Positions 9,080-57,659 of a stretch of DNA of 64,000 nucleotides are shown in pieces; position 1 is the first letter of the stretch; each line of letters begins with the position of its first letter. The DNA comes from Patescibacteria group bacterium (lineage in GTDB: Bacteria > Patescibacteriota > Minisyncoccia > Phycocordibacterales > UBA918): positions 115,728 through 179,727 of the forward strand of contig JAIELQ010000007.1 of the NCBI GenBank assembly GCA_019752815.1, read 5' to 3'. The notes beneath the pieces are model-generated. The model made no database searches. It was not told the origin of the DNA and was given only the letters and a program-made list of their open reading frames with translations. The translations under genes and the position numbers were made by a program.

Positions 9080-10045
9080 ATGAAGTTAATTTTTGGAACA
9101 TCTCTTTTTCAACTAAGCGCGTTAGTTGTCATCTTATATTTTGCGTTTGGTACTTTGGTAGCGAGTGCTAGCTTCGGTATCACACCGCCGTATGTTCGCA
9201 ATACGAGTCTCACCCGTAACTCAACATATGAGCAACAAATTCTTTTGGTACGAGGAGACCCAAATATGCCCCTCAACGCACAGATTGTAGTTGATGCCCC
9301 TGAGATTCAAGACTGGATTGAAATCGTTGAAGGGACGACAATTTTACTTCCACGTGGTGAACAAAAAGTACCAATGACCGTACGGATTAAAGTACCGAGT
9401 GATGCTGACTATCGTGAGTACGAAGGTAAAATTCGTATCAGAACACAACCAACGAATGATCAGGTGGCTGATGGTGTGGTCAGTATTTCTCTTGGTGCCC
9501 AAGTTGATATCAACTTAAATGTTATCGATAGAGTCATTGAGGATTTTCGTGTGCGTAAAATTGATGTCTCAGATCTTGATGCAGGGCACAAATTAGGCTG
9601 GTTATTTTTCCCTGGAAAAATTAATTTTACGATGTCACTTGAAAACACAGGTAACGTAAACATTGCACCGTCAAAAGTGCAGTTCCGAATTTTTGATCGA
9701 ACTGGAGCAGTATTGCTTGAAGAGACACAACATACTGGTAAGCTTAAAAAAATTGCGCCATACGCCACTGAAGATGTGACCGCCCATCTACCTACCAGAC
9801 TTCCCGCTGGAAGTTACATGGCCCGATATGCGATTTATAACAACGATGAGGTTAAACAAGAAGGGGAGTTGAACTTAAGTATTCTCCCGTACGGTACGCT
9901 ACAAACTGCTGGTTATGGCTTTGGGGGGCTATCTATTCCACATAAAATCTCTATTTTGTTGCCACTCTTTGCCTTCATTATCATTGTGCTCTACGCCATT
10001 TACTATCGTCGCAAAGGCCGTAAAGACGATACCCTTATAAACTAG
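9080..10045 (+). CDS. Secreted two-domain beta-sandwich protein with C-terminal TM anchor and basic tail. Paralogue of 28503 and 29458 (architecture reminiscent of DUF916/DUF3324 cell-surface proteins).
   Basis: Signal/TM at the N-terminus. Motif W.EI..G...LP.G....P; a second domain has ENTGNVNI. C-terminal TM LLPLFAFIIIVLYAIYY plus RRKGRKDD. Confidence 0.55.
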   Translation: MKLIFGTSLFQLSALVVILYFAFGTLVASASFGITPPYVRNTSLTRNSTYEQQILLVRGDPNMPLNAQIVVDAPEIQDWIEIVEGTTILLPRGEQKVPMTVRIKVPSDADYREYEGKIRIRTQPTNDQVADGVVSISLGAQVDINLNVIDRVIEDFRVRKIDVSDLDAGHKLGWLFFPGKINFTMSLENTGNVNIAPSKVQFRIFDRTGAVLLEETQHTGKLKKIAPYATEDVTAHLPTRLPAGSYMARYAIYNNDEVKQEGELNLSILPYGTLQTAGYGFGGLSIPHKISILLPLFAFIIIVLYAIYYRRKGRKDDTLIN

Positions 10046-10046
10046 T

Positions 10047-11162
10047 ATGAAATGGTTCGTCCCTTTCTTTCAACTACTAGCCGTAGTCATTATATTTGGT
10101 AGTGAAGTACATGCGCAGATTGAAACTGTTGGTGTGGCAACTACTACTATCACGTTAAGTATTTGTGGAAACAGTCTGGTTGATTCATCAGAAGACTGTG
10201 ATGTTCCTGGCGAAACTGGTGTCTATAGTACAACTATCGTTGGTAGACAATGTACCCCAACGTGTAAATTTGGTCCGTATTGTGGTGATGGTATTTTGCA
10301 GACCCAATTTACTGAAGAGTGTGACGACGGCAATAACACGAGTCTCGATTTCTGTTCTGCTACCTGCAAAATTGAACCAGCTGGCTCCGGTGGAGGGGGA
10401 AGTTCAGGCGGAGGTGGCGGGTCTGGCGGTGGTGAGCGCGATCTTGGTGACACCCAGATTAGTGTGACTGGTATCGGGTATCCAAGTCAGACGATAAACT
10501 TTTTGCTCGATACAAAATCTATTGGTTCGGTACGAGCCAATAGTTCAGGTCGTTTTGAGTTTGCGGCCGATGCGTCTCCGGGAACAGCTACATTAGGTGT
10601 ATGGGCTGTAGATTCCGCTGGTAAACGTTCTATTACGCTCAATAACACCTTTGACGTCACTCAGGGCGCAGTTACGAACGTGAGTGGTCTTATCTTGCCA
10701 CCGACCATTTCAGTAGCCAACCCAAATGTTATTCCAGGCAGTATTATTGCTATTACCGGGCAAAGTATTCCATCAGTAAAAGTTGATGTGCACTTTAATA
10801 ACAGTGAAATCGTTGAGTCGGTCACGAGTGGAGCTGACGGTAAATATACATTAAATTTTAATTCTACTCGTTTGCGTAACGCTGAATACACCATCAAAGC
10901 TCGTTCCGTCTCAGGTGTGGCACCACTATTAACACAAAGTAGTTTCAGTACATCACTTCAACTTTTTGTCGGTGTTGATGGGCGAGCCACCTCACCATCA
11001 GACCTTAGTCGTGATGGAAAAGTTAACCTAGTAGACTTCTCGATTTTGATCTTCTGGTGGCAAACCGCCGGCGGTGATTCTAATCCACCAGCTGACATTA
11101 ACGGTAATGGTCGGGTGAGTTTGGAAGACTTTTCTATCCTCCTCTTTAACTGGACCGGCTAG
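10047..11162 (+). CDS. Secreted protein: Myxococcus-type cysteine-rich repeat, Gly/Ser linker, Ig-like domains, C-terminal dockerin-like double repeat
   Basis: Signal peptide. Cysteine-rich motif CGDGILQTQFTEECDDGNNTSLDFCSATCKIE (the CGxG..EECDDGN..CSxTC pattern). Linker GSGGGGSSGGGGGSGGGE. C-terminal DLSRDGKVNLVDFSILIF and DINGNGRVSLEDFSILLFNW match the Ca-binding DxNxDGxVNxxD dockerin pattern. Confidence 0.65.
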   Translation: MKWFVPFFQLLAVVIIFGSEVHAQIETVGVATTTITLSICGNSLVDSSEDCDVPGETGVYSTTIVGRQCTPTCKFGPYCGDGILQTQFTEECDDGNNTSLDFCSATCKIEPAGSGGGGSSGGGGGSGGGERDLGDTQISVTGIGYPSQTINFLLDTKSIGSVRANSSGRFEFAADASPGTATLGVWAVDSAGKRSITLNNTFDVTQGAVTNVSGLILPPTISVANPNVIPGSIIAITGQSIPSVKVDVHFNNSEIVESVTSGADGKYTLNFNSTRLRNAEYTIKARSVSGVAPLLTQSSFSTSLQLFVGVDGRATSPSDLSRDGKVNLVDFSILIFWWQTAGGDSNPPADINGNGRVSLEDFSILLFNWTG

Positions 11163-11370
11163 AACTTCCAAAAATGGCACATTGCGTTGTCGCTGCTGCG
11201 GTACATTTTCCTCCACCGTACAGCGGTACGTTTCCAGAAAATGTCCTTGCTTCTTACAGAAGCTGTCCACTCATTCGGTATTTTTTACAAAATCCCTCAA
11301 TGAGTCTTGAGAAAGCAAAGCAGTTTGCTTTCTCACTCCTAGCACTGCACTCAGTTTTGAAAATTCTACT
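11161..11370. repeat. 3'-UTR repeat family, copy E (long modular form)
   Basis: AACTTCCAAAAATGGCACATTGCGTTGTCGCTGCTGCGGTACATTTTCCTCCACCGTAC-AGCG-GTACG... 5' half matches copy B; internal and 3' modules match copies D and B. Confidence 0.6.
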
Positions 11371-11452
11371 CAACGTGTGATTCTGACGTTTGGTGATATG
11401 CGAGATTTTGTAGTGATTCATTTTTAACTAGACCGGGTAACAATTAATTTTA

Positions 11453-11830
11453 GTTCGAGTCCCTGTCAGGCAGCGAGTAGAAAAGACATTCTTCGGGATG
11501 TTTTTTCGTATCGCTGCCTGACAGGCGCAGCTTTCTGAAAGAAAGCGTCTGCGCGAACTCGAAGCCGTTGCCAGCTCTTTTGAAAAAAGAGCGACAACGG
11601 GTACTGAACATGTAATGTTCGAGTCCCTGTCAGGCAACAATCGGCAGACCACAAATGTGAATACATTTGTGGCCTTTGCCGTTGCTAGTATGACAGGGGC
11701 TCGAAAGACGTAAGCCGGGGCCCCTCTGGGCCGGCGAGTCGGGGTCGAAAGCACTTACTAGAATTGGAACGAAGTGAACAATTTTAGTTATTGACTTGTG
11801 ACCGAGTCCCTGTCAGTCATAAAAAATCGG
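11453..11830. other. Densely structured non-coding block: three direct copies of GTTCGAGTCCCTGTCAGGCA (tRNA T-arm/acceptor 3'-end-like), each with an inverted partner. Several long nested hairpins. Candidate structured ncRNA(s) or att-site remnants.
   Basis: Copies at 11453-11472, 11617-11636 and 11802-11819. Perfect 15-bp inverted repeat 11462-11476/11511-11525. Hairpins at 11525-11554, 11565-11600 and 11621-11705. GC-rich hairpin GCCGGGGCCC-CTCT-GGGCCGGC at 11714-11735. Confidence 0.5.
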
Positions 11831-11900
11831 CTAGGAATTTACTAGTCGAATTCTTTATAATTTGTTATGCTCTGATTAGAAACAGCAAAGGGGTTGCAAG

Positions 11901-12350
11901 ATGACATCTGACAGCCCTTTTGAGGGTAAAATTGTGATTGTGTCGTACACAGAGTGTAATTTAGACACGGAAGACACTGCGTGTCTTGTGTATAGAGTTG
12001 AGCAAGGGAAACTCGTACCGTTACTTGGAGTTCTTGATTTGCCAGACGGCTTGCATTGGCATCGAAATGATTATGATCAATACGATGTTGCGATCGCTGT
12101 CATCAAGAGAACTGGCAGTCTCGAGGTTTTTGTTCCAAACTATTTTATTCCTGGGAAGCAATTTTTTGGTCAAGAGTTTGGATTTGTCGAACTCAGTGAA
12201 GGGCTAAATGATAAAAATGAGATTGAAGAGTGGTGTGAATATGATGGTTTCTTATATAATTGGGAAATGCTCAGATTGCTTGAGGAGCACCAGATTAAAG
12301 TCAGGTATATTGACCCAAAAACGATGCACGTCATTCCAGAAGAAAATTAA
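11901..12350 (+). CDS. Hypothetical cytoplasmic protein
   Basis: 149-aa ORF, no recognisable motifs. Followed by hairpin CGGCAC-GCT-GTGCCG and an AT tract (12353-12380). Confidence 0.45.
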   Translation: MTSDSPFEGKIVIVSYTECNLDTEDTACLVYRVEQGKLVPLLGVLDLPDGLHWHRNDYDQYDVAIAVIKRTGSLEVFVPNYFIPGKQFFGQEFGFVELSEGLNDKNEIEEWCEYDGFLYNWEMLRLLEEHQIKVRYIDPKTMHVIPEEN

Positions 12351-12541
12351 GTCGGCACGCTGTGCCGGCTTATTAATTTTATAATATATAAATCCAAATA
12401 TCGTCCCAGACGGCTAGCACAACAACTTTAGCTACATCTAGAAAAATGTAAAAGTTTAAGTCACCAATTTAAAAATAGAAAACCTGACGAGTATGAGTCG
12501 TCAGGTTTAGTTTTTCTTGTCAGCCATGGATTAATTTCGTT

Positions 12542-13111: not shown

Positions 13112-13445
13112 AGTGGAACTCCTAAGAATGAACAGAGAGGCACTTTGCCCCGATGTAACAAAAATACGATATTTTACAAAAAAAGCAATATTGCAAATTT
13201 AAAAAACTAACTTCAAGCTAATTGAAATCTTTACTTTATTTATAAAAATTTATGTAAAAAAGTCCTAACATCGTCCCAAACAGCCAGTAAAAAAATTAGG
13301 TTGACCCGGACAGAGTTCTTTTCTTGAGGGTGGTGATTTATTGGTAAAAATATTTTTCACCTTATTTCGTTTAGATTTAAACCCTTGGTTTTATTGCTTT
13401 GTAATTACTAGAAATGTATATGTAGTGTGCTATTATTTTCAAATT

Positions 13446-47672: not shown

Positions 47673-47745
47673 GGGCCCGTAGCTCACTTGGTAGAGCGCC
47701 TCATTTGCACTGAGGAGGCAGGGAGTTCGAATCTTCTCGGGTCCA
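47673..47745 (+). tRNA. tRNA-Ala (anticodon TGC)
   Basis: Cloverleaf: acceptor GGGCCCG/CGGGTCC with a G3:U70 wobble (the Ala identity element). D-arm GCTC-ACTTGGTA-GAGC. Anticodon stem CCTCA/TGAGG with loop TTTGCAC. T-loop TTCGAAT. Discriminator A. CCA not encoded. Confidence 0.9.
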
Positions 47746-49354
47746 CTATACGCAACTTTTCAGGAGTTGCATCAGAAGCTAGGTTGTAAATACACGATAA
47801 AACGGGGTTCGAAAAGCCCTCGTTTTTCGTATATACAAGACCCTCTGGAAAGACTAAGTTTTGGAACCCGCGACGGAACTCTGGTGTTAAATCAAGCCAG
47901 AGACGAGAAATACTTTGTACAGCAACGTTAAAGTACTCCTTTTCAAATTCTGCCTCAAGGAGATCTATCGCGTCTTCGTGCAATGTGATTTTTGTCGTGA
48001 GTAGTTCCAATTCTAGTGCTGCGAGGCGCTCCTTTACCATTTCTGGTGTGTAGAGTCCTGATTCAGCTAACTCGTAGATTTTAAACCGTTTTGCCTTTAC
48101 TTCGTTTACCTTTGATTCTTGATCTACGTATTCTTGTCGTAGCTTACCGAGTAGTTCAGTTTGTCGTAGTGCAATCACAGCATTCATGTACTCAAGTAGA
48201 TCTGGTGATGGTGTGATGCGATTAAGTAGCTGCATGAAATCAGCTTCAAGGGTTGCTTTACGGATTACTTTATTCTTTAGCGGACACCCTTTCTGATAGC
48301 AGTGATAGCTGGGATAGTAATTGCCACTGCGACCACGAGACGAACTAGCGGTCATTTGCTGATCACAGACACTACAGCGAACTAGCCGACGGAGTGGAAA
48401 GTCCTCGTTGTCTCGATTTTTGATGATTTTCTTATTGCTTCGTTTACCATCGCGCACTGCAATAATTTCATCCAGTTCTTCCTGAGAGATCATTGGAGTG
48501 TGTTTTCCTGGATAGTATTTGTCGTCATCTGCACAATACAGCTTGCCTGCATAATAATCGAGATAGTGATACAGAATTCGATCAATTAATTGTGGTGAAG
48601 CAAGTATGCCAGCTATTTCAGCAAAGTTGTTTGCCTCGAAGTAGTTACGCATGTCCGTTGCGGTAAATTGTTGCAGGCGATAGCTACGCAGTGCCTCTTG
48701 AACCATAGGAAATAGCACAGGGTGAATTGGGTCAGGAGTAGTCTTTTTGGCACCATTCTTTTTGTTTTGTTTGTTGATATAACCGACAGGAGGCTTATAC
48801 GGATAAATGCCCTCACGAATTCGATCTTGAAGGCCGTTGCGACAACGTAACGCTCGGATGTTGTTATCAAATTCAGCAAAGCCCGCAAGCATTGTTTCCA
48901 TAAGCTTACCCATTGGTCCGTCATTAATAGCCTCAGTGACAGAGTGAAGGGTGGTCCCGTATTTAATGAGAGCGGCTTTAACTGCGAAGTGATCTTCAGT
49001 GTTACGAGCAAAACGGTCAATCTTCCATACTACGAACGCAGCAATCTGTCCCTTATGAACGCGACAGTAATCAATCGCACTTAGTAACTGTTTACGGTCT
49101 GTGGTTTTAGCACTTTCGCCTTTTTCTATGAATGGATCACACGCAAGTATGAGTCCTTGTTTATCAAGATAATCCTTACAAGCGCGCACCTGTGCATCCA
49201 GTGAGGTGCCATCAATTTGTTCTACGTCACTAACACGCACATAGACGATAGCCAGGTTTGTATTAGCTTTGAGTAATTTCTTTGTTTTTTTATTTCGAGT
49301 GTATAACTTAGTTTTCATGATTATTGTGTTTAATAAGCCAAAAGGCGGTCCCAA
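47684..49354 (-). CDS. Large serine recombinase (integrase)
   Basis: N-terminal resolvase catalytic domain (AIVYVRVSDVEQ...S..R), recombinase domain, Zn-ribbon CSVCDQQM..YHCYQKGC, C-terminal coiled-coil. The last 20 codons are the antisense of the tRNA-Ala gene. Start could be the second Met (MKTKLYT, 49318). Confidence 0.8.
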   Translation of the reverse strand: MGPPFGLLNTIIMKTKLYTRNKKTKKLLKANTNLAIVYVRVSDVEQIDGTSLDAQVRACKDYLDKQGLILACDPFIEKGESAKTTDRKQLLSAIDYCRVHKGQIAAFVVWKIDRFARNTEDHFAVKAALIKYGTTLHSVTEAINDGPMGKLMETMLAGFAEFDNNIRALRCRNGLQDRIREGIYPYKPPVGYINKQNKKNGAKKTTPDPIHPVLFPMVQEALRSYRLQQFTATDMRNYFEANNFAEIAGILASPQLIDRILYHYLDYYAGKLYCADDDKYYPGKHTPMISQEELDEIIAVRDGKRSNKKIIKNRDNEDFPLRRLVRCSVCDQQMTASSSRGRSGNYYPSYHCYQKGCPLKNKVIRKATLEADFMQLLNRITPSPDLLEYMNAVIALRQTELLGKLRQEYVDQESKVNEVKAKRFKIYELAESGLYTPEMVKERLAALELELLTTKITLHEDAIDLLEAEFEKEYFNVAVQSISRLWLDLTPEFRRGFQNLVFPEGLVYTKNEGFSNPVLSCIYNLASDATPEKLRIVDPRRFELPASSVQMRRSTK

Positions 49355-49466
49355 CCCGTATCACACCACCTTGGGCAGTATGAATAAGTCAGTGACCGCC
49401 CATTGGACGCGAGGCAATATACCTCTAACTAGTTGATGTGATAAATGATTGATTGAATAATAGCAC

Positions 49467-49928
49467 CTATTTCTTTTTCAGTCGGCTGTGGATTATTTTG
49501 TGCTTATTTTCTAACGATTTAGTAGCCTTGGTTGCTGTTGCACCCTTACTTTTTCGCAGCTTCAATCCAACTTCTTCAATGAAGGATTCTTTTGAGGTGA
49601 CTATATTCGAGCTTAAATGAAGAGTAATTTTATGTTCTCCCAAAGCAGTGAAGAATTGTGTTGATTTAGTTTCATCACGAAATAGTCTGTTATATGAAGT
49701 AACCACTAGTGCACCCAATGTCTCTGTACGGATGAGAGCGAGTAAGTCAACAAGACCAGGCCTCCGTTTATCAATTGAAGAGCCCACATCAATAAAGCAG
49801 TCCACAATAGTTAGGTCGTTTGTCTTACAGTATGCGATACACTCCTTTATCTGATTACTAATATGTTCTATTGGTTTCTCTGAACTGGAGCGAATATATA
49901 GAGCAGTTTTTACTAATTTCTTTTTCAT
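49467..49928 (-). CDS. Small serine recombinase / resolvase catalytic-domain protein
   Basis: ALYIRSSSEK (catalytic Ser context) .. VVTSYNRLFRD. 153 aa, no obvious C-terminal HTH. Confidence 0.5.
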   Translation of the reverse strand: MKKKLVKTALYIRSSSEKPIEHISNQIKECIAYCKTNDLTIVDCFIDVGSSIDKRRPGLVDLLALIRTETLGALVVTSYNRLFRDETKSTQFFTALGEHKITLHLSSNIVTSKESFIEEVGLKLRKSKGATATKATKSLENKHKIIHSRLKKK

Positions 49929-49938
49929 AACAATTTAA

Positions 49939-51735
49939 TTAAAACGGTATACCGTCATCTTCAATGTTTGTAACTACCTCCTCATCGTCATTTTCTTCTT
50001 CACTTACATCAGGTTCGGGACGGTCATCAATGAGTCGAAACATATGTTTACCGTTATCCTTTACCTCAACTGTAATCACTCCATCTTTTTTGAGTTTCGC
50101 TAAGGCAGTGTTCATAGCATGATCACCAATACTAAGTGCGCTTTTAATGTCAGTTCTTGACACCGCCTCGTCGATTCCTGAAAGCATGTGTACAATCTTT
50201 TCGATATTTTCCTGCGTATTTTCCTCCTTTGAAGTATCAACACCCAGATAGGAAAAGTTGATGCTGTTATTTTCACCCATTTGGAAACCAGCTTTGAATG
50301 GCGGTAGTTCTGGCTGAACACGAAGCTTCAACATGCGCACCATAAGATTTTCTGTCCTGCGTTCAATCGCTAAGTGGAAATCAAGTGCGTTAAAGATATC
50401 GGTTGATCCTCGCAGGCTGCCGCTCCCAGCTTTTCGTGTGTGCCCCTGGTCTTTCTTGTGGTGGTGAATAAAGATCACTGAACGCTCTGGAGCAACTAAG
50501 CTTCCTAGAGCTTTCATAACCTGTCGCATCTCTGTAGCGCTATTTTCGTCACGTCCATGCAAACGAACCATTGAGTCCAAGATTATTAGTCGTGGCTTCA
50601 ATGTATCGACATACTTCAACAACTTTGTTCGATGCGCTTCTCGGTCAATCTGCAGTCCTGTATGAGAAAGGAAAACAATATCGTCATGAGCTTCGATATC
50701 CATATTTCGGAATCGTTGTTCAATTATGCGTCGATTATTCTCCTCATCGATCACTAACACTTTACCTGCCGTAGTTCCAAAGTGTCCGAGATACGGAGCC
50801 CCTGTGGCAACAGCTTGTGATAAAGCCAGTGTCATAAACGATTTGTACGAGTTTGATTCTCCCGTAATAGCACCAAGACAACCAAGTGGAATAAGGTCTT
50901 TAGCTACCCATTGAATCGGAGGGAAGTCTTCAGCGTACAGTTCGCGTAGCGTAAATGGCTTTAATACAAATTCTTCAATATCACGCTGTTCAAGTTCGGT
51001 AAGTCGCAACTTTGTAATGCTATTGAATACCTTGCGTAGTTCCACATCTGGTAATGGTTCTGATAGAGCGGTCACGTTCCAAGTAACTACCTCAGGCCAA
51101 GCAACTTTATCCCAACGTTCTGGTCCCATTCGACTAACAATTTCACCTATCTGTTTTGCTGCCGCTTCGTTTCGCATCCCAACAGGAATCAACTCTGATG
51201 TTGCTTCCACAGGCTTATTTTTGAACGTAGAGAGCACTTCAAGCAGTCCTCCTGGGTATATTGGCAAATTAGTAATATCTGGCGCATTTTCACTTGTAAT
51301 CCCATGCCAGCTATATGCTCCTTTACTACTCACGCTTGGAGGCGCAACCACATAGCCGCCATCACCCCGAATATCTGTAAGTTCTGCAATCCGTGTGGCA
51401 TTCTTGGTTACTTTCCCTGGATACTGGTAGTAGAAGTGATATCCGCCACCACCAGTTTTTACAGTAAGCGTTGATGGGTACATTGAGCTATCTCCACCCG
51501 CTTCAACATCTACTACCACTAAGTTTGATATCAGTCCTGTCACAATACCTATCTGAGCCCTCGGAAACTGAGTAAGCCAGGCGTCTACTTCATCATCTGT
51601 CGCAATCCGTTTACTAAATTCACCCCATTTGATGAGTGGCTCTTTATTTTTGTTGAGGGGTATCACTGACCAACCCATTTTCCGATACTTCTTGAATGCT
51701 TCCGCCACTGTTACTGCTGTTACGTAATCGTTCAT
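49939..51735 (-). CDS. Bifunctional primase-polymerase (Prim-Pol) / P-loop helicase replication protein
   Basis: N-terminus WSVIPLNKNKEPLIKWGEF..GIVTG..VVDVE resembles Prim-Pol. Central RecA/DnaB-like P-loop GAITGESNSYKSF and Walker B VLVIDEEN. C-terminal wHTH-like region. Confidence 0.65.
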   Translation of the reverse strand: MNDYVTAVTVAEAFKKYRKMGWSVIPLNKNKEPLIKWGEFSKRIATDDEVDAWLTQFPRAQIGIVTGLISNLVVVDVEAGGDSSMYPSTLTVKTGGGGYHFYYQYPGKVTKNATRIAELTDIRGDGGYVVAPPSVSSKGAYSWHGITSENAPDITNLPIYPGGLLEVLSTFKNKPVEATSELIPVGMRNEAAAKQIGEIVSRMGPERWDKVAWPEVVTWNVTALSEPLPDVELRKVFNSITKLRLTELEQRDIEEFVLKPFTLRELYAEDFPPIQWVAKDLIPLGCLGAITGESNSYKSFMTLALSQAVATGAPYLGHFGTTAGKVLVIDEENNRRIIEQRFRNMDIEAHDDIVFLSHTGLQIDREAHRTKLLKYVDTLKPRLIILDSMVRLHGRDENSATEMRQVMKALGSLVAPERSVIFIHHHKKDQGHTRKAGSGSLRGSTDIFNALDFHLAIERRTENLMVRMLKLRVQPELPPFKAGFQMGENNSINFSYLGVDTSKEENTQENIEKIVHMLSGIDEAVSRTDIKSALSIGDHAMNTALAKLKKDGVITVEVKDNGKHMFRLIDDRPEPDVSEEENDDEEVVTNIEDDGIPF

Positions 51736-51874
51736 ATTCTTCGCCGTGACGCTTCATGAATCCACGAACAACAATGTCTGCCTGTATATCTACTAGGTCA
51801 CGAACTTTTATCAATTCATGTTCAGCTAGACCGAGATGACCCAGCATTTGTCTTGTGACTTCAATTGGTGTCAT
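51644..51874 (-). CDS. Small hypothetical protein (possible excisionase/regulator). Overlaps the 5' end of the listed primase ORF.
   Basis: 76-aa ORF overlapping the listed start of the primase ORF (49939..51735) by 92 nt in another frame. Confidence 0.3.
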   Translation of the reverse strand: MTPIEVTRQMLGHLGLAEHELIKVRDLVDIQADIVVRGFMKRHGEEYERLRNSSNSGGSIQEVSENGLVSDTPQQK

Positions 51875-51933
51875 TTGTTTAGATTAACTATTAATAAGAG
51901 CATGGAGGCCTCCGTGTCTCTTACTTTAATTAT

Positions 51934-52809
51934 CTAGTTAGGTTGGTGAGTCACCTGCGTGTCACCATTTTGGGTGCCGTAATTGCGATAGTATTCTCGG
52001 TTCTTGACTGAAATTAGCTTGTCATCGGTTGGAACCATTCTTTCAACTCGTTCATTAATACCCCTTACACTGTCTCGTATGGCTCTAATTGAAGTCTGAC
52101 GTTGTTCTTCTGCCCAGTCTAAAATTAAAATGTCAGCTAAGACATCATCAGGTACTGATTCACCACTTGGATATTTAAACAGCTCAGTTAAAATTTGGGC
52201 ATCATATAATCCAGTAAACTTAAGCTTCTCCTCATTGATTTGAAGTATTTTACTTTCAACGTTGTAACAAATTGAACAGTCAGCCAGTCCTACTTTCACA
52301 TGCTGGTTATTTCGAGTTCTGTCACAGAGCTTCTGCACATTTGCTAACATTTGAGTCACCTCTGCAGGCATGTCAGGTGGGATCCCTGATTCTGGGTAAC
52401 AGGAGTTGTAGTAGTGCTTTAGCGGTCCTGCAAGCTTACCCATGAATTGAGAAGGACTGATGTTCGGATGAAGTGTAGTAGCTTCTGCAACTGCTGCTGA
52501 AATTGAGCTATACGGTTCTGTCGCTACCTCCTCAAGCGGATATTCTAAAAATAACTCATCTGTTTTATTGATGTTAGCCAGATTTCGATATTTTGCTAAC
52601 AAGTTTTTAAGCGATGGTTGTGCCTCGGTGCTTCTGGTGTAGATAACCTCAGCTTCAAAGCACGCACTGAGACCGTAGTCTTCTGCGAGTTCTACTAAAT
52701 TTGAATATGCAGTAAATAAGTTGACCGTAGAGCGGAGAGCAGCAAATTCAGATAATGAGTCGTTAGGCATAACCAAATCGTACCAGAATTGCGCCTTTTT
52801 ACTACCCAA
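51934..52809 (-). CDS. Hypothetical protein (first gene of leftward module)
   Basis: 291-aa ORF, no recognisable motifs. Confidence 0.45.
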   Translation of the reverse strand: MGSKKAQFWYDLVMPNDSLSEFAALRSTVNLFTAYSNLVELAEDYGLSACFEAEVIYTRSTEAQPSLKNLLAKYRNLANINKTDELFLEYPLEEVATEPYSSISAAVAEATTLHPNISPSQFMGKLAGPLKHYYNSCYPESGIPPDMPAEVTQMLANVQKLCDRTRNNQHVKVGLADCSICYNVESKILQINEEKLKFTGLYDAQILTELFKYPSGESVPDDVLADILILDWAEEQRQTSIRAIRDSVRGINERVERMVPTDDKLISVKNREYYRNYGTQNGDTQVTHQPN

Positions 52810-53090
52810 ATTACAAGACTAGTCTACATCCTGAAAAATAGGAAAATTTTTTATGGCACCCCTCACTTTTTGGGTCCAGATTATTTCCAAACCACCCATA
52901 CCACCAAAAATTGCCTGACATACCGATACATACCCAGTGTCTTATATCTCATAACGTTTCCGAAGTACTCCCCCATACCACATTCACGACACAAGGTTCT
53001 TATGACTTGGGCTATGAAGGAGTAAATTATTTATAGCCATACTTCTTCGCACTACCTACACGGCTTAGTGCGGCGTTAACTACTATCACT

Positions 53091-53432
53091 ATGAAGAAAG
53101 TAAAAGAAGTAATAGAAGAAAGACCTATCAGTACTTACAAGGGTTCAGAGAAGACATTGGAGCTTGTTAAGGAGGCAATTAAAGAGCATCCGCAACTTGG
53201 TCCTAAATACCTTGTAGATTTTGACCCTTATTATTCGGCAATGACTTACAACTCTTGGAAGCGACAGGGTTATGTTCCTGCTAAAGGTTCAATCGGTATT
53301 AAGAGTGTGACGTTCATTGAGTCGCTAGATGAGCAAACAGGTAAGAAGAGTATGATTCCTCGGACAGTGATTCTATTCCATCGTTCGCAGGTTCAAGCAC
53401 TCAGCCCATTTAAACAAAAACAAACAGCATGA
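53091..53432 (+). CDS. Possible ArdC-N-like ssDNA-binding (antirestriction-type) domain protein
   Basis: YYSAMTYNSWKRQGYVPAKGSIGIKSVTF loosely matches the ArdC_N pattern (Y..P.W.TFKQA..LGG.V.KGEKG..IV). Weak assignment. Confidence 0.35.
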   Translation: MKKVKEVIEERPISTYKGSEKTLELVKEAIKEHPQLGPKYLVDFDPYYSAMTYNSWKRQGYVPAKGSIGIKSVTFIESLDEQTGKKSMIPRTVILFHRSQVQALSPFKQKQTA

Positions 53433-53594
53433 GTCGCAAACTAACTGTTGTGTGTGAACGGAGAGCCAAAGATGAGCCTTGCATCAGAATTACCGATAAG
53501 CGTCTTGCTGCAGCTGGCTTCTCACTGGGCGATCTCATTTCAGTAACCATCAAACCAAAGACAGTAATTATCAAACGACTTAACAAATTAAATT

Positions 53595-54164
53595 ATGAAT
53601 AACATCGCAACTCCATACAAACGACGACTACAAGGTCATTATCCACCTGTACGCGTGATTGTCTCCGAACCAAAACCAATCGCCGCACACCCAATAAAGA
53701 GTGAGATAGCAAAGAACCTCGGCACATTTTCCTTTATTGCGACCTTCGAAGAGGATCACGAGGCAATTGCTGCATTCAAGAACGAAGGGCTGATTGCCTA
53801 CAGATGCATTCTTAAGACAGCTGATGGTCAGCGTACACTAGGGATCGGACATGGAATCAACGTGCTCTCAGCAGAAAATCGATACTTAAGTAAAAGTGTG
53901 AAGTGGGCGCATTCAGGCGCATTTATAGCTGCAGTTACCAATGCAGTGAAATTTCCCACACTTGACGGTGTCCCGGTCTCAGATTTCGGAATGGGTAACA
54001 ATGAAATTGCCTCAGCATTTATGGCAACTGAAAAGCAAAAATCCTATTTAAAAGAGTTAATCATGGGCTTGCCTGAAGAAGACGGTCGCGAGGAGTTGAT
54101 TAATAATCTCGACTCGATGACAAAAGAAGATGCTAGCGAATTAATACAACAATTGAAGAATTAA
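53595..54164 (+). CDS. Hypothetical protein
   Basis: 189-aa ORF. Confidence 0.4.
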   Translation: MNNIATPYKRRLQGHYPPVRVIVSEPKPIAAHPIKSEIAKNLGTFSFIATFEEDHEAIAAFKNEGLIAYRCILKTADGQRTLGIGHGINVLSAENRYLSKSVKWAHSGAFIAAVTNAVKFPTLDGVPVSDFGMGNNEIASAFMATEKQKSYLKELIMGLPEEDGREELINNLDSMTKEDASELIQQLKN

Positions 54165-54249
54165 CATTAAAGCCGTGTTTCCTCAGCGAGACACGGCTTT
54201 TTTTGTTCTAATGCATTAAAAATGCTGTTTAAATGATATTATATTAAGC

Positions 54250-55590
54250 ATGATTAGTGAACTCGACACCATAAAAAATACAGTAACCAAAACTTTTACA
54301 GACTTTGGTATTTCTGTGGATGTAATAAAGGCGTATGAGGGTATCAACCATATTCACCTACATCTGGTCCCAACGAAGCCGGTTCGCATGCATGAGATTA
54401 GGGGTTATCTTGATGACTTACGTTTTGCTCTTGGTCGTCATGTAGTAAAGATAGAGGCACCGGTTAAAAATAAAAATGAAGTGAAGATTAGCGTTCTGAA
54501 AGACAAGCGAGGAACAACAGTTAATTGGGCTACATTACAGGAATGTTTGTTACCAGATAGTTCGCCATTAACTGTACCGTTCGGCATTACTGAAGAAAAT
54601 AAAACGCTTCTAGTTGATATTTTTACACTCCCGCATCTACTCGTTGGTGGCAGAATGATTACCGGCAAAACAAACTTTGTACACGGTCTCATAAATTCAC
54701 TTATATTACGTAACTGTCCAGATATACTTCGGTTGATTTTAGTTGATCCAAAACAAGAAGGTATGCCTTTGTATAAGGGACTGCCACATCTCCTTACGCC
54801 CCCAATCGACAGCTCTGAAAAGACAATACTCGCACTTAAGTGGGCCTGTAAAGAAATGGAACGTCGTTACGACATACTTGAGGCGAGTGACTCAGAGGAC
54901 ATTGCAGACTATCACCAAAAAGTATCTGCAGTAGATAAGCGTTCAGAACCAATGCCATACATTGTGTTCGTCATCGATGAACTGGCCGAAGTCATGGCCG
55001 ATTATGGAGATGAGGCAGAAAAGCTTATGCGAAGACTTGCTGTGATGGCTCGTGGCGCTGGTATTCATATGATCCTCACTACAGCTAGCAACGAACCCCG
55101 GATATTGCGAGGTACACTGCGTGCAAACATTTTTAGTGCTTTAAGCTTCGGTGCTGATTCACAAGCTGCCTCTGAGGCGTTTATATATCAAGCCGGTGCA
55201 GAAGAACTCATAGGCAGAGGAGTCGGTCTGTTTATTTCATTTGATTATACAACTGCAATTGAACTGCAAACTGGTTTAATTGATGAAAAGGAAATTAAGG
55301 AAAACGTTTTGAAGGTAAAACGTCGACACGGAGTGGTGGACGACAATAATATTGATTTAAAGACCCTCGCCGACTACAATCTCACTATTTTTGCCTTTGA
55401 TGAAGAGGATGATTTGTACGAGGACGCCAAGAAAGCGGTGATAGAAGCGGGTAAAGCGTCCACTTCATACATTCAGCGTAAGCTACGTATCGGTTATTCG
55501 CGAGCAGCTAGATTAATCGATCTTCTCGAAGAACGAGGCGTGATCGGTCCAGCTGATGGTGCGTCACCACGAGAAATATTGGAAGATTAA
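54250..55590 (+). CDS. FtsK/SpoIIIE-family DNA translocase (TraB/Tcp-like)
   Basis: Walker A GGRMITGKTN, Walker B VFVIDELAEVM. C-terminal FtsK-gamma-like winged helix YIQRKLRIGYSRAARLIDLLEERGVIGP. Confidence 0.75.
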   Translation: MISELDTIKNTVTKTFTDFGISVDVIKAYEGINHIHLHLVPTKPVRMHEIRGYLDDLRFALGRHVVKIEAPVKNKNEVKISVLKDKRGTTVNWATLQECLLPDSSPLTVPFGITEENKTLLVDIFTLPHLLVGGRMITGKTNFVHGLINSLILRNCPDILRLILVDPKQEGMPLYKGLPHLLTPPIDSSEKTILALKWACKEMERRYDILEASDSEDIADYHQKVSAVDKRSEPMPYIVFVIDELAEVMADYGDEAEKLMRRLAVMARGAGIHMILTTASNEPRILRGTLRANIFSALSFGADSQAASEAFIYQAGAEELIGRGVGLFISFDYTTAIELQTGLIDEKEIKENVLKVKRRHGVVDDNNIDLKTLADYNLTIFAFDEEDDLYEDAKKAVIEAGKASTSYIQRKLRIGYSRAARLIDLLEERGVIGPADGASPREILED

Positions 55591-55598
55591 TAAAATAG

Positions 55599-56186
55599 AT
55601 GAATACCAGAATTTCTAGTTACGACGAACAAATACACCGGCACCGATTTGCCTCATGGTGTGCTTCGCGTGCGGCTTCAGTAAGAAATAAATGCATGTTT
55701 TCAGCAAAAACAGGGCAAGAAATTATTGAAGCATCTAAACTTTCGCAAGTTTCATTTGGTTGGGAAAATTTACCTTTTTCAAATCAAAAGGAGTTTGATA
55801 CTTGGCACTCTAGAATGCGCGAGTCTATTTGTCTCACAGCTAGCAAAAATTTAAATGTTAATGGAAAATGCACACACGGTATAGCAGCAAAACTCATTAA
55901 TATTTACTTAAAGACAATTTTTGTTGTGGGTGTACACGGTAAATTGAATTCAAGTCAAACCACACTATTAAATCTTATTCATCCTCCAATTGACCGAACC
56001 TTACTTAATGAATTGGCTAAAAATAACATAGGAGGTTATAGATCCGAATGGAGAAAATTTATAAAAATCGGGTTTAGTAGTTTTACGTCAACGCAATACG
56101 AAAATGTTATTGAACTAGTTATAAAGTCCAATAATGGGAACCCATTATGGATGATTGAAGAGCATTTTAAAGGTTATCAAAAATGA
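55599..56186 (+). CDS. Hypothetical protein
   Basis: 195-aa ORF, no motifs. Confidence 0.4.
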   Translation: MNTRISSYDEQIHRHRFASWCASRAASVRNKCMFSAKTGQEIIEASKLSQVSFGWENLPFSNQKEFDTWHSRMRESICLTASKNLNVNGKCTHGIAAKLINIYLKTIFVVGVHGKLNSSQTTLLNLIHPPIDRTLLNELAKNNIGGYRSEWRKFIKIGFSSFTSTQYENVIELVIKSNNGNPLWMIEEHFKGYQK

Positions 56187-56596
56187 ACATCTATCTGGAC
56201 ATTGACGGCACGATGATTCATGAAGATCATTGGGATACAGAGAATCAAGCCGCTGCAGGTCTAGCTGAGTTCATTATTGCCCTGAGGCCACACAACACAT
56301 ATTGGCTTACAACACACTGCCGAGATGGTAATCCAGAACGACCGCGAGAAATCATGAAGCGTTTTGTACCACCAGAGCTACACGCAGATATAGACCGCAT
56401 CAAGCCAACTGTTTGGGATACGATGAAAACACAAGGTATTGATTGGTCCCGAGACTTTATTTGGTTTGATAATGACATCTCACCGTTTGAATGGGAGAAA
56501 ATTGAACAAGGCACTGAAGGTCAGCAGGCTATTGAAGTGAACTTGAAACTGAACCCGAAGCAATTACTTGAGATAGCGAGGGACGTCCTTAGTTAG
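56183..56596 (+). CDS. Small HAD-superfamily-like protein
   Basis: N-terminal YLDIDGTMI (DxDGT motif I). Only 137 aa. Confidence 0.4.
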   Translation: MNIYLDIDGTMIHEDHWDTENQAAAGLAEFIIALRPHNTYWLTTHCRDGNPERPREIMKRFVPPELHADIDRIKPTVWDTMKTQGIDWSRDFIWFDNDISPFEWEKIEQGTEGQQAIEVNLKLNPKQLLEIARDVLS

Positions 56597-56597
56597 T

Positions 56598-57659
56598 ATG
56601 GAAACTCATCTCCGTTCAAAGCAGTACTACGAAGATCGCTATGATCGAATGACCGTAGAGGACTGCCGACGGAGTGAAAGCTTTTTCTTGAGGAGTACCG
56701 ATGGTGACACTGATAATATTGAAGAAAAACTAAAGGCTGGTATCCGAGAAGTAGCTTGGGAAATCAAGAGAGTTCACCTAACCTTAGACTGGTACAGCAA
56801 GCGCGAATCTACTATCAATGAGTGGATGCAGAAGGACCAAGCGCGGGACACGATGCTTGCTGTAGCACAACCGCCAAGAAACGTATTCTGTTCGACGTGT
56901 GCTGAGAGAATGAATGAGGACAGTCGCACTACTTGGGATAGAGGTAGTAAGGAGCAGGTATTGTTTTTCATGCGCTGCGTCGCTGGTCACCTGCCAATGA
57001 AAGGTGTATTTGAAGATGGTGTCGAGCTGGTTATAGAAGATAAACTTTGTCCAAAATGTAGCGCTGTATTGAACAGCAGTCGCTTACCGAGTAAAAAGGG
57101 TGCGATTAAAACAAAAATATCCTGTTCGGCTTGTAATTTCGAAGAAGTAGATGAATTTGCATTAAGCAGTAATGAACCGGCAGAGGATCCAAGTTATGAG
57201 GCAGACCGACTACGCTTCTGTCTTACTGGTGAAAGTTTAAAGAAGGCACAAGATGAGGCATTTAGGATGGAGCAAATGAGCCGTTTGGTAGAGGGGTGGA
57301 AGCACGAGGAGGAACATCAGGCAGAGTACAAAGCAGTATCCGAACTAGAAAAATTGACTATACCGCAAGTAAAACAGCGAATTAGTGACCTTATCGAAGG
57401 AAAGAACTACTTAAATCTAGTATTTGAAAAACCGAGTATTGAGCGGTACGTCTCACTAGAATTCAGTGTGGAAGAAATGAAAACGGACAATCAGCGGATG
57501 AGCATCAGCAATCTCCAAAAGTTGTTAAAAATGGCATTTGCGGACACGAATTGGCGCCTAATGACTGAGGGTATTAGTTATCGCTTGGGGCTCCTGACAG
57601 GCAGAATTCGGGCTTATGAATCAAAGGAAGATCTACTCAAACTGGTAACGAAAAAGTAG
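56598..57659 (+). CDS. Hypothetical Zn-ribbon-containing protein
   Basis: Cys pairs CSTC .. C..H, CPKC, CSAC. Helical C-terminal half. Confidence 0.4.
   Translation: METHLRSKQYYEDRYDRMTVEDCRRSESFFLRSTDGDTDNIEEKLKAGIREVAWEIKRVHLTLDWYSKRESTINEWMQKDQARDTMLAVAQPPRNVFCSTCAERMNEDSRTTWDRGSKEQVLFFMRCVAGHLPMKGVFEDGVELVIEDKLCPKCSAVLNSSRLPSKKGAIKTKISCSACNFEEVDEFALSSNEPAEDPSYEADRLRFCLTGESLKKAQDEAFRMEQMSRLVEGWKHEEEHQAEYKAVSELEKLTIPQVKQRISDLIEGKNYLNLVFEKPSIERYVSLEFSVEEMKTDNQRMSISNLQKLLKMAFADTNWRLMTEGISYRLGLLTGRIRAYESKEDLLKLVTKK

Follow-up and report, generated by a model that had tools for sequence, protein, structure and literature searches.

Organization of the block downstream of a dockerin/Ig-domain gene

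The block analyzed here occupies positions 11161-11830 of the window, by which we mean the whole 64-kb stretch of DNA that was analyzed, and lies between a gene for a 371-aa dockerin/Ig-domain protein and a gene for a 149-aa protein. We judged the ORFs listed inside the block to be mechanical, in agreement with the initial annotation, which had found none of them credible. The high degree of order that it had described was borne out by folding, as the energy of 11430-11830 was far better than that of shuffled sequences (z = -10.9 on the + strand and z = -13.1 on the - strand).

A pattern search located GTTCGAGTCCCTGTCAGGCA as exact + strand copies at 11453-11472 and 11617-11636, with 0 matches expected from 100 shuffles. 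A third copy, GACCGAGTCCCTGTCAGTCA at 11800-11819, differs from GTTCGAGTCCCTGTCAGGCA by three mismatches. Thus, of the three direct 20-mers originally reported, the first two are exact and the third is inexact, with the part that it shares exactly (CGAGTCCCTGTCAG, 11803-11816) beginning at 11803 and not at 11802. Inverted partners had been placed at 11511 and 11691, and we found both there: TCGCTGCCTGACAGG from 11511 pairs with 11462-11476 to form a perfect 15-bp stem, and TGACAGGGGCTCGAA from 11691 forms with 11618-11646 an arm pair of 29 nt. Neither the pattern search nor a covariance model run with filters off detected the motif in the window outside the block, and a REP-like genome-wide motif was rejected on the basis of this single locus within 64 kb. 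Tandem Repeats Finder detected nothing in the block because its two units, A and B, have just the core repeat in common.

Each unit comprises a copy of a tRNA end (the core), a hairpin resembling a terminator, antisense copies of the core, and additional hairpins, and the unit body ends at the next tRNA-end copy. From upstream to downstream, the features are as follows.

11163-11435, + strand: spacer downstream of the stop codon of the 371-aa dockerin/Ig-domain gene, with moderate structure
11436-11452, + strand: possible tRNA remnant, degenerate; the tRNA body is missing here
11453-11474, + strand: core 1, the last 21 nt of tRNA-Gln plus one trailing base
11453-11616, + strand: unit A, 164 nt, with a three-way junction, the P4 hairpin, and the arm GTACTGAACATGTAAT
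11454-11460/11557-11563, + strand: unit A P1, T-loop paired with its own antisense
11463-11476/11511-11524, + strand: unit A P2a, acceptor end paired with its own antisense
11480-11491/11496-11507, + strand: unit A P2b, terminator-like hairpin with a cUUCGg loop
11525-11554, + strand: unit A P3, hairpin of the three-way junction
11565-11600, + strand: unit A P4, hairpin with a GAAA loop
11601-11616, + strand: unit A arm GTACTGAACATGTAAT, after P4
11617-11638, + strand: core 2, second exact tRNA-Gln 3' end; a homologous second copy follows the same arm in L014 and L060
11617-11799, + strand: unit B, 183 nt, with a long hairpin, a linker hairpin, and a 61-nt hairpin
11618-11705, + strand: unit B long hairpin, core 2 paired with its antisense at 11691-11705 (z = -8.9)
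about 11714-11735, + strand: unit B GC-rich linker hairpin
11743-11803, + strand: unit B conserved 61-nt hairpin, ending in GTGACC
11800-11819, + strand: core 3, partial tRNA-Gln end with 3 mismatches and the exact part CGAGTCCCTGTCAG
11820-11900, + strand: trailer after core 3, with a hairpin resembling a terminator at 11827-11849 and then the conserved leader of the 149-aa gene
12389-12420, + strand: degenerate second-type site TAAATCCAAATATCGTCCCagacggcta, just after the 149-aa gene
13259-13290, + strand: second-type site AAAGTCCTAACATCGTCCCaaacagccagtaa, made up of a conserved 19-nt arm and a decayed copy of the tRNA-Gln end

Unit A folds with a minimum free energy of -82.2 kcal/mol (z = -10.0) and is 94% identical to positions 7364-7506 of the relative L014, while unit B is homologous to the tRNA-Gln tail of L012, a member of the Saccharibacteria. 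The first bases of core 3, GACC, are also the foot of the 61-nt hairpin, and the same type of junction, in which GTGACC leads directly into the local tRNA end from position ~57 onward, was observed in L012, L051, and L060. Homology of the leader of the 149-aa gene to relatives begins at 11835-11863.

The spacer upstream of core 1 contains hairpins at 11203-11244 and 11308-11335 with fold z values of just -2.7 and -1.9, and R1, our covariance model of the unit family, did not detect a unit there. Local alignment of 11268-11363 with 11487-11586 of unit A scored 42, compared with 23 +/- 4 for shuffled sequences (0/300 shuffles), hinting that the spacer may be an older, decayed unit. Between the spacer and core 1, GGTAACAATTAATTTTAG (11436-11452) aligns with the tRNA sequence GGTACCAGCTATTGGGG and also resembles the pre-tRNA sequence AAACTAAATTAATT of L014; it possibly represents degenerate tRNA-Gln positions ~35-52 or sequence just upstream of the tRNA, two origins that are indistinguishable here.

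Downstream of the block, the AAAGTCCTAACATCGTCCCaaacagccagtaa site closes a two-gene segment that starts at core 3. It has homologues in L046 and L060, with further copies after single genes, and the L060 site at 9280-9308 terminates in an exact copy of L060's own tRNA-Gln end. The TAAATCCAAATATCGTCCCagacggcta site, which alone has no statistical significance, corresponds in position to a better copy that L047 has behind the homologous gene. Neither type-two site has a hairpin. Relatives have the 149-aa gene behind a RelA_SpoT gene or other genes, with a decayed core in L046 only. The 149-aa protein and a 189-aa protein had no match in Pfam, PHROG, or PADLOC, and no integrase domains were found in the flanking ORFs; within the window, a recombinase is encoded no closer than 36 kb, namely a serine recombinase whose 556-aa ORF overlaps tRNA-Ala.

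The repeat as the 3' end of tRNA-Gln

The repeat corresponds to the last 20 nt, from the T-loop to the acceptor end, of Patescibacteria tRNA-Gln. When a 19-mer of it was searched against 185,579 genomes, 16 loci were found, 13 of which lie in Patescibacteria and represent the tRNA-Gln(CUG/UUG) 3' end. Core 1, which comprises G53 and the T-loop, the 3' strand of the T-stem, the 3' strand of the acceptor stem, and the discriminator G, is identical to the tRNA-Gln 3' end in these 13 genomes. The likeness to a tRNA 3' end noted from the sequence at the outset is therefore an exact match to one tRNA identity.

As also proposed at the outset, no copy is a tRNA gene. ARAGORN called no tRNA in the block, where Rfam likewise gave no family at threshold and merely spurious miRNA-type hairpin matches at E <= 10; in the entire window, both programs identified only the tRNA-Ala at 47673. 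With the cloverleaf model RF00005, nothing tRNA-like appeared at E <= 10 in 11100-11950. These negative results and the missing D and anticodon arms after the inverted acceptor strand led us to reject a tmRNA or a permuted or split tRNA, and known ribozymes, riboswitches, Y RNA, 6S RNA, and SRP RNA were rejected since Rfam had no such match at E <= 10. Priming by mature tRNA at a PBS-like site was rejected as well, because the antisense copies complement the trailer of the gene and not CCA.

Of tRNA-Gln, the block retains positions 53-73 only. In L014, an intact tRNA-Gln occupies the position corresponding to core 1 and is followed by sequence 94% identical to 11453-11595 and then by a second core. 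Relative to L014, the 5' 52 nt are missing, consistent with the suggestion that the tRNA has vanished, and we infer from this comparison that the 5' two-thirds of the tRNA was lost in this genome, leaving the stack of units without its gene. Alternatively, an integration or rearrangement possibly carried the 5' part past the left edge of the window. The window has only fragments of tRNA-Gln, and the combination of an intact tRNA with a displaced 3' fragment that has the tRNA's orientation, a feature used by Islander, is present in the homologous loci L014 and L060. On the contig of a near-identical relative of L014, the sequence breaks immediately ahead of the tRNA. Core 2 would be the tRNA's own end prior to the addition of unit A.

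Related units behind other tRNA genes

In related genomes, the same units were found behind tRNA-Gln, tRNA-Asp, tRNA-Thr, tRNA-Met, and tRNA-Leu, in every case with arms and flanking duplications that correspond to the local tRNA. The family is defined by R1, which was built from Gln units only. A unit extends from ~21 nt before the tRNA 3' end to a direct copy of that end, and in its three-way junction the T-loop pairs with its antisense, the acceptor end pairs with its own antisense and encloses a terminator hairpin, and P3 forms the remaining hairpin. By this definition both units in the window are members, with unit A scoring 126 bits and unit B scoring 21.9 bits (E = 0.005). R1 also matched tails of tRNA-Met (45.7 and 35.3 bits), tRNA-Asp (41.7, 39.7, and 29.4 bits), tRNA-Leu (36.1 bits), and tRNA-Thr (32.6 bits), and every non-Gln match begins ~21 nt ahead of the tRNA end; independent members outside the training set scored 29 to 56 bits. 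The comparative sample comprised about 36 tRNA contexts from few lineages, with several alignments of two to five sequences. Antisense to the tRNA's own 3' end was found downstream in 15 of 36 contexts compared with upstream in 2 of 35, and a direct copy of the tRNA's own 3' 14-mer lies 150 to 220 nt downstream in 12 of 36. About 40% of the sampled tRNA genes in related Patescibacteria carry a 150- to 220-nt structured tail that copies their own end in both orientations.

Homology among units extends across tRNA identities. The P4 hairpin and arm of unit A share 86% identity with those of a unit behind tRNA-Asp in L060, as does the 61-nt hairpin of unit B with its counterpart behind tRNA-Thr(CGT) in the same genome; in each case, a copy of the local tRNA end follows. 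In L060 and L061, tRNA-Gln is accompanied by two units and a gene segment; the variant 3' end of this tRNA, GTCCCTGTCCGCCAG, occurs there as four exact copies, and the antisense copies CTGGCGGACAGG bear the changes that match GTCCCTGTCCGCCAG. Units are missing from 7 of the 12 tRNA-Gln loci. L006 and L014 are 96% identical through the last tRNA base and unrelated beyond it, and L016 and L034 have in common only the tRNA and unit, ending at the end of the second core. The tRNA-Gln end in these alignments is a variable junction.

The predicted structure is conserved. In an alignment of the window, L014, and L060, 47 pairs include six double compensatory changes and one broken cell, with 99.3% of cells paired, and just 1 of 500 shuffles did as well. 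Seven of the 23 pairs of the 61-nt hairpin have double compensatory changes across five copies. In 7/7 modules, the sense strand has the more favorable fold, exceeding the antisense strand by 2 to 31 kcal/mol. Compensatory changes and the sense-strand bias fit a selected RNA function and a selfish element equally well.

Comparison of relatives also uncovered the empty site that had been suggested as a check. At tRNA-Thr(GGT), L052 and L055 are empty, and L051, L053, L054, and L056 hold a 207-bp insertion with a 25-nt duplication between flanks that are 100% identical, with empty and filled sites both held by one population. Accordingly, the units act as discrete elements capable of insertion or excision. 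This pair of states fits insertion and precise deletion between the 25-nt repeats alike, and loss is the more likely direction because the filled state is common to L060 and L062. Domain scans and gene tables revealed no recombinase, transposase, or reverse transcriptase in or beside any examined unit. Viral collections scanned with patterns for the core, for each of the two units, and for the second site gave nothing or only chance coding matches, and a phage origin was rejected.

Origin and movement of the units

We consider the block to be an orphaned tRNA-Gln tail with two tandem copies, A of 164 nt and B of 183 nt, of a family of insertions at tRNA 3' ends, with a probability of roughly 0.7. 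We regard as established the nature of the repeat, the existence of intact homologous loci, the occurrence of the family at five tRNA identities with matched arms, the conservation of structure, and the empty/filled polymorphism. The family of small non-coding structured insertions at Patescibacteria tRNA 3' ends seems to be undescribed, as we found no account of such elements in Patescibacteria in the literature. In the model that we favor, an insertion would enter the tRNA gene in the T-loop and duplicate its last ~20 to 25 nt directly at the flanks, so that the tRNA remains whole, and the three direct repeats would be these duplications. Each insertion would add an intrinsic-terminator-like hairpin right after the tRNA end and antisense copies of the duplicated segment, which would be the inverted partners; due to these antisense copies, the tRNA-end copy would fold on the sense strand into a long hairpin or three-way junction, with more conserved hairpins preceding the next tRNA-end copy. 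Stacking would result from serial insertion and unequal recombination, and the 5' two-thirds of the tRNA would have been lost later in this genome. Since the units encode nothing, their movement, presumably by site-specific recombination between the element's own tRNA-end copy and a tRNA gene, was probably catalyzed in trans. Exchange of the simple attP x attB type leaves unexplained, however, why right halves that are 86% identical carry arms and duplications matched to different tRNAs. In RNA, the hairpins may terminate or insulate the tRNA transcript.

The initial annotation had offered a novel structured ncRNA as one candidate, which is supported by helices kept by compensatory changes and the better sense-strand fold, but the units are, in addition, DNA that can be inserted or excised. 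In its most developed form, this idea makes the units functional 3'-trailer RNAs of tRNA genes, like E. coli RtT, that are co-transcribed and released by tRNA-processing enzymes. Arrays would then arise by tandem duplication, the direct repeats would be processing signals and not recombination products, and the antisense would pair with the tRNA end or the next copy as an acceptor-stem mimic. Besides the maintained helices, the steadier sense strand in 7/7 modules, with 11 G-U pairs in L012, the RNA-typical UUCG and GNRA loops, and the recurring CUGC loop of P3 suit this explanation. The antisense can pair with either neighboring core in cloverleaf-like folds (z = -6.3 and -5.5), homology between loci stops exactly at the discriminator of the distal core, and the E. 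coli RtT repeats share the layout, including antisense to the tRNA-Tyr end. However, the tRNA and promoter region are gone from the window, and unit A is nonetheless 94% identical to L014; units are also missing at 7/12 tRNA-Gln loci and variable among close relatives. Because the terminator comes first, most tRNA transcripts would stop short of the antisense segment, and the predicted fold with the antisense destroys the cloverleaf. We view a trailer RNA as unlikely.

Stacked attachment scars at a vanished tRNA had been a further candidate, and its tandem insertions flanked by tRNA-end duplications hold up; units of 160 to 210 bp with conserved structure and no integrase are not ordinary island scars. 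That the block is what remains of islands or prophages integrated at tRNA-Gln by tyrosine or serine integrases, with nearly everything deleted and the hairpins as unrelated leftover terminators, appears highly improbable. Direct repeats of a tRNA 3' end from the T-loop are the classical island signature (PMC4383910, PMC3146451), a restriction-modification island abuts the tRNA-Gln end in L006, gene-bearing segments lie between core-like sites in L060 and the window, and a serine-recombinase element occupies the window's tRNA-Ala. Random deletion remnants would nevertheless display neither homology across genomes and different tRNAs, nor a constant size of 150 to 220 nt, nor antisense arms that covary with the tRNA, nor a complete 207-bp unit present or absent en bloc. 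The attP hairpin of CTX phage and the attC sites of integrons imitate their partner sites in single-strand hairpin integration. A core/antisense hairpin that likewise serves as a recombination site in folded single-stranded DNA, imitating the double-stranded end of a tRNA gene, would produce the observed order of core, loop, inverted core, body, and core, and would fit a conserved structure with target-tracking sequence and the strand-specific stability bias. It is barely credible given that no integron integrase, Xer-type, or rolling-circle/ssDNA replication gene is nearby, the attC core sites RYYYAAC/GTTRRRY are absent, the UUCG and GNRA loops and many G-U pairs suggest RNA, and the second-type sites lack a hairpin. 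An integron attC site itself was rejected, as the arms GTTCGAG...CTCGAA with GTT outermost 5' have the wrong polarity and consensus and no integrase is present.

Among known systems, the closest analogue of the units is the RtT repeats of E. coli tyrT/tyrV (RF00391; rttR/tpr; 178-bp repeats), which are tandem units of ~160 to 180 nt directly behind a tRNA, are bounded by the exact last 19 to 20 nt of the tRNA from the T-loop (AATCCTTCCCCCACCACCA at +160, +338, and +516), and contain antisense to the tRNA end (dG -22.4, z -2.9). The 164- and 183-nt units have the RtT layout of tandem ~170- to 180-nt repeats bounded by the tRNA's last ~19 nt, with the tRNA intact only in relatives. Unlike RtT, the Patescibacteria family occurs at many tRNA identities, is centered on a terminator within a three-way junction, and varies in presence and absence, and we detected no relationship by sequence or model. 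RF00391 had no match in the window, by gathering score or at E <= 10, or in L060 or L051, with the four E. coli copies scoring 133 to 138 bits as a positive control, and R1 gave no convincing match on the E. coli locus (best 13.3 bits, off the repeats).

Integrative islands at tRNA and tmRNA genes are cataloged by Islander (PMC4383910) and are exemplified by the Dehalococcoides ssrA islands, which have 20-bp repeats with a conserved motif upstream of each and whose integrase, a serine recombinase of ~540 aa, is encoded by a gene that overlaps attL (PMC3146451). The units share with such islands and with their non-autonomous derivatives, the cis-mobilizable elements, direct repeats of the last ~20 nt, a T-loop junction, a motif just upstream, tandem stacking, and integrase-less members, and the 556-aa serine recombinase ORF of the window overlaps tRNA-Ala as the Dehalococcoides integrase gene overlaps attL. 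Islands are gene-carrying and kilobases long, whereas the units are 160 to 210 bp, non-coding, and internally conserved, with antisense target copies; the integrase inside the element that Islander looks for is not found in them. To our knowledge, islands do not carry antisense copies of their target.

MITEs and the palindromes of REPINs and IS200/IS605 elements are also small, non-coding, hairpin-forming, multi-copy, and presumably moved in trans. The initial suggestion of a MITE or of IS200/IS605 ends thus stands as far as small, discrete, non-coding insertions are concerned, but the inverted partners are antisense to the target and not terminal inverted repeats: the 182-bp body of the L051 insertion runs from AGACCC to GTGACC with no terminal inverted repeats. 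MITE duplications measure 2 to 10 bp, compared with 25 nt in L051 and at least 20 nt in the window. Taking MITEs and REPINs together, duplications of 20 to 25 nt contrast with 0 to 10, and strict placement at tRNA 3' ends contrasts with dispersed intergenic locations. An IS200/IS605 or REPIN origin is further opposed by the single locus in 64 kb, the long duplication, and the absence of Y1_Tnp from the 40 ORFs of the window that were scanned; the surroundings likewise yielded no Y1/RAYT or DDE partner.

By analogy with the EBS/IBS pairing of group II introns and with IS110 bridge RNA, the element would complement its own target in a manner that differs per copy. Unlike in these systems, no reverse transcriptase, intron domains, or IS110 recombinase was found, and the pairing of 15 to 25 nt is with a target copy inside the unit. 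We tentatively raise, as a distinctly doubtful proposal, that the units form a new target-matched mobile class in which antisense tRNA-end copies, as RNA or folded single-stranded DNA, direct or template insertion, with RtT as a decayed relative. One family would then colonize tRNA-Gln, tRNA-Asp, tRNA-Thr, tRNA-Met, and tRNA-Leu, each time restoring the tRNA and duplicating 20 to 25 nt, and the target-matched arms may point to a guide-like targeting principle. If confirmed, our findings would offer a first way into the mechanism behind the E. coli tyrT repeats, which have been puzzling for 45 years and are alike in layout, extend the so far sparse inventory of mobile DNA in Patescibacteria by a class of very small integrative elements, explain assembly breaks and “tRNA fragments” beside tRNA genes in these genomes, and supply tRNA annotation pipelines with a maskable signature.

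Two minor observations concern other loci. The contig of L006 stops within the restriction-modification island that abuts its tRNA-Gln end, and a related restriction-modification island lies in a Prim-Pol element without a tRNA in L050. In a metagenome scan with the acceptor hairpin pattern, 20 of the hits were unrelated GC-rich hairpins, and L034 was the one locus of use.

Repeat units and their match to the tRNA-Gln 3′ end

Between genes 10047..11162 and 11901..12350 lie two tandem units, each opening with a core, a direct copy of the tRNA-Gln 3′ end:
11453..11616: unit A (164 nt), opening with core 1
11617..11799: unit B (183 nt), opening with core 2
11800: start of core 3

The initial annotation had reported three direct copies of a 20-mer resembling a tRNA 3′ end. 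A pattern search, with zero matches expected, recovered GTTCGAGTCCCTGTCAGGCA exactly at 11453 and 11617, but the copy at 11800, GACCGAGTCCCTGTCAGTCA, carries three mismatches. The inverted partners at 11511 and 11691 were present as described, the first completing a 15-bp stem without mismatches and the second a pair of 29-nt arms. On the + strand, 11430-11830 folds with z = -10.9 relative to shuffled sequence, with unit A at z = -10.0 and the second hairpin at z = -8.9. Neither ARAGORN nor Rfam produced a match to the block, even at E <= 10, in agreement with the earlier judgment that it is not a tRNA. The surrounding genes (dockerin/Ig surface proteins, ABC/MacB, TGT, UvrABC) mark a Patescibacteria chromosome, and the 149-aa neighbor matches a 'Patescibacteria group bacterium' protein at 100% identity.

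In a scan of one genome per species, the 19-mer of the repeat occurred at 16 loci. Thirteen of these represent tRNA-Gln(CUG or UUG) 3′ ends from Nomurabacteria, Paceibacterota, Saccharibacteria, and unclassified Patescibacteria, bearing out the proposed likeness; the other three were chance matches in GC-rich genomes. The repeat begins with G53 and the T-loop, continues along the T-stem and the 3′ strand of the acceptor, and stops at the discriminator. At L014, a comparison locus from another genome, an intact tRNA-Gln(UUG) is followed by a stretch 94% identical to window 11453-11595 and then by a second tRNA-end copy. The 52 nt expected before 11453 are absent from the window, where just a doubtful, decayed resemblance is left, indicating that the vanished tRNA postulated in the initial annotation is real. 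What remains in the window is a relic. Immediately 5′ of the intact tRNA-Gln in L014 (7231-7300) and L006 (7440-7500), we also observed a decayed partial tRNA-Gln copy spanning the D-arm to the T-loop with an 18-nt insertion, showing that the gene itself was tandemly duplicated in that lineage.

Tail units at tRNA-Gln and other tRNA genes

Strong antisense to the tRNA end occurred within 60 nt downstream in four or five of 12 tRNA-Gln loci (-30 to -36 kcal/mol; 0/200 shuffles), and these loci also bear a second direct copy 150-220 nt downstream. The most informative are L060 and L061, whose tRNA-Gln has a different acceptor stem (TGGCGGA/TCCGCCA) and where matching acceptor changes appear in 4/4 direct and 2/2 antisense copies. 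Alignment of the window, L014, and L060 unit 1 yielded 47 base pairs that form a three-way junction of these helices:
T-loop with its antisense
acceptor end with its antisense, enclosing a terminator-like hairpin
a third hairpin, P3

Six of these pairs changed on both sides and one cell was broken, a result equalled by 1 of 500 shuffles, and pairing was abolished when partners were slid. In 7/7 modules tested, the tRNA-sense strand gave a more stable fold than the complementary strand, the difference being 2 to 31 kcal/mol. The tRNA-Gln tail in a Saccharibacterium, L012, is a homologue of unit B.

The tail-unit family is not confined to tRNA-Gln. R1, a covariance model built from three Gln units only and searched without filters, gave matches of 29-46 bits to tails behind tRNA-Met, tRNA-Asp, tRNA-Leu, and tRNA-Thr genes, with every match starting ~21 nt before the tRNA end. 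Tails of other tRNAs fold to the same architecture with arms matching each tRNA, and P3 recurs in them with stem GAAAGC and loop CUGC. Among 36 distinct tRNA contexts in related loci, antisense to the tRNA's own 3′ end (z <= -3) lay downstream in 15/36 and upstream in 2/35, and the own 3′ 14-mer was directly repeated 150-220 nt downstream in 12/36. The right-hand parts of the window units recur as well. P4 plus the arm (GTACTGAACATGTAAT) of unit A shows 86% identity to a unit behind tRNA-Asp in L060, and the 61-nt hairpin of unit B, which ends in GTGACC, shows 86% identity to a hairpin behind tRNA-Thr(CGT). In both places the local tRNA end is then repeated. Five copies of the 61-nt hairpin share 23 common pairs, 7 with double compensatory changes. 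The window relic belongs to a widespread family of tRNA-tail elements, which appears to be undescribed.

L059, L060, and L064 keep one gene order around pyrG (gatC-gatA ... tRNA-Met/Met/Asp/Thr cluster - prfB - ftsE - ftsX - pyrG - tRNA-Gln), and tail units follow 5/6 of the tRNA genes in L060. Among close relatives, contigs end at the tRNA-Gln array (L059); these breaks suggest that tail-unit repeats disturb assembly.

Insertion, proposed movement, and related elements

Tail units behave as discrete insertions. Contigs of one population (identical PyrG protein) with 100% identical flanks fell into two classes at tRNA-Thr(GGT). The terminator lies directly 3′ of the tRNA in L052 and L055 (empty), and 207 extra bases are present in L051, L053, L054, and L056 (filled), of which 182 bp are a unit of the family and the remainder is the 25-nt AATTCTGGGCATTGGCTCCATGAAA occurring a second time, with one mismatch. 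Because the native trailer comes after the distal copy, the unit arose by insertion. L060/L062 share the filled state, so the empty allele may have resulted from precise excision or from deletion between repeats. Other comparisons mark the tRNA-Gln end as a point where variable DNA joins. Identity between L006 and L014 is 96% as far as the final tRNA base, past which no relationship persists and a restriction-modification island lies in L006; L016 and L034 have only the tRNA and unit in common. We also noted an 83-aa HNH_3 endonuclease gene 45 nt 3′ of a tRNA-Gln without a tail unit (L064 7900-8151), and an rve-domain transposase upstream of tRNA-Thr in L051 (1-991) that is absent from the otherwise identical L052/L054.

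The best-supported reading takes units A and B as a stacked pair of copies of one small non-coding element. Such an element would enter its cognate tRNA gene in the T-loop, restore that gene with its own tRNA-end copy, and bring a terminator and antisense clamp; the tRNA body would have been lost later in the window genome. Neither the units examined nor the DNA next to them encodes an enzyme for such movement. Site-specific recombination in trans is the probable mode, judging from T-loop junctions, 20-25-nt segments of identity, and analogy with tRNA/tmRNA islands, among them serine-recombinase islands in which a conserved motif precedes every repeat (PMC4383910, PMC3146451). The conserved structure could serve the element as a terminator or insulator, could be a recombination site in folded DNA, or could serve the host as a processed trailer RNA. 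The proposed mechanism gives no account of units whose near-identical right halves bear arms matched to different tRNAs.

Checked against the definitions of a tRNA gene, MITE, IS200/IS605 or REPIN, integron attC, and integrase-bearing island, the units departed from each in one or more tested features. The initial interpretation was partly right, in that the units are stacked and MITE-like at a vanished tRNA, but they are neither classical MITEs nor IS200/IS605 ends. The units are akin to tRNA-linked repeats and miniature integrative elements; among described cases, the E. coli tyrT/tyrV-distal 178-bp repeat (RtT) comes closest and has the same layout. In the sequence we examined, the 19-nt tRNA-Tyr end recurs at 178-nt spacing, and each repeat behind tyrV (L087, E. 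coli K-12 1287066-1287622) holds GGGGAAGGAT, an antisense match to the T-stem/acceptor end of tRNA-Tyr (dG -22.4 kcal/mol, z = -2.9). To our knowledge, this antisense feature has not been discussed for RtT. However, the Rfam RtT model did not match the Patescibacteria units, nor did R1 match RtT. The family is of interest chiefly for its target-matched arms and this link to RtT.

Cassette-like sites and neighboring genes

A second type of conserved site, ~30 nt, consists of AAAGTTCTRACATCGTCCC joined to a tRNA-Gln end, either decayed or exact, and has no hairpin of its own:
window 12389-12420
window 13259-13290
L060 9280, 9962, 10357
L046 623
L047 1170

These sites come after single small genes in a cassette-like array downstream of tRNA-Gln and flank small gene-bearing segments in L060; their positions point to a putative recombination site.

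Homologues of the 149-aa gene (11901-12350), at 66-79% identity, occur in varied contexts (L038-L045). In one lineage, the homologue lies 139 nt behind a 344-aa RelA_SpoT-domain gene (PADLOC PDC-S33-like), with TIR and methylase genes adjoining; this context suggests a toxin-partner or defense pair. The window lacks the RelA_SpoT gene.

Window 47673-57000 looks like an integrated mobile element at tRNA-Ala(TGC); the tRNA-Ala end has no repeat within the window. A 556-aa large serine recombinase ORF (minus strand) lies directly after the tRNA, overlapping its 3′ end, and is followed by a small resolvase, a Prim-Pol/AAA_25 primase-helicase, and small ORFs. Window 50.0-56.6 kb shows 45-70% protein identity to L050, an element with an Eco57I/MmeI-type restriction-modification system.
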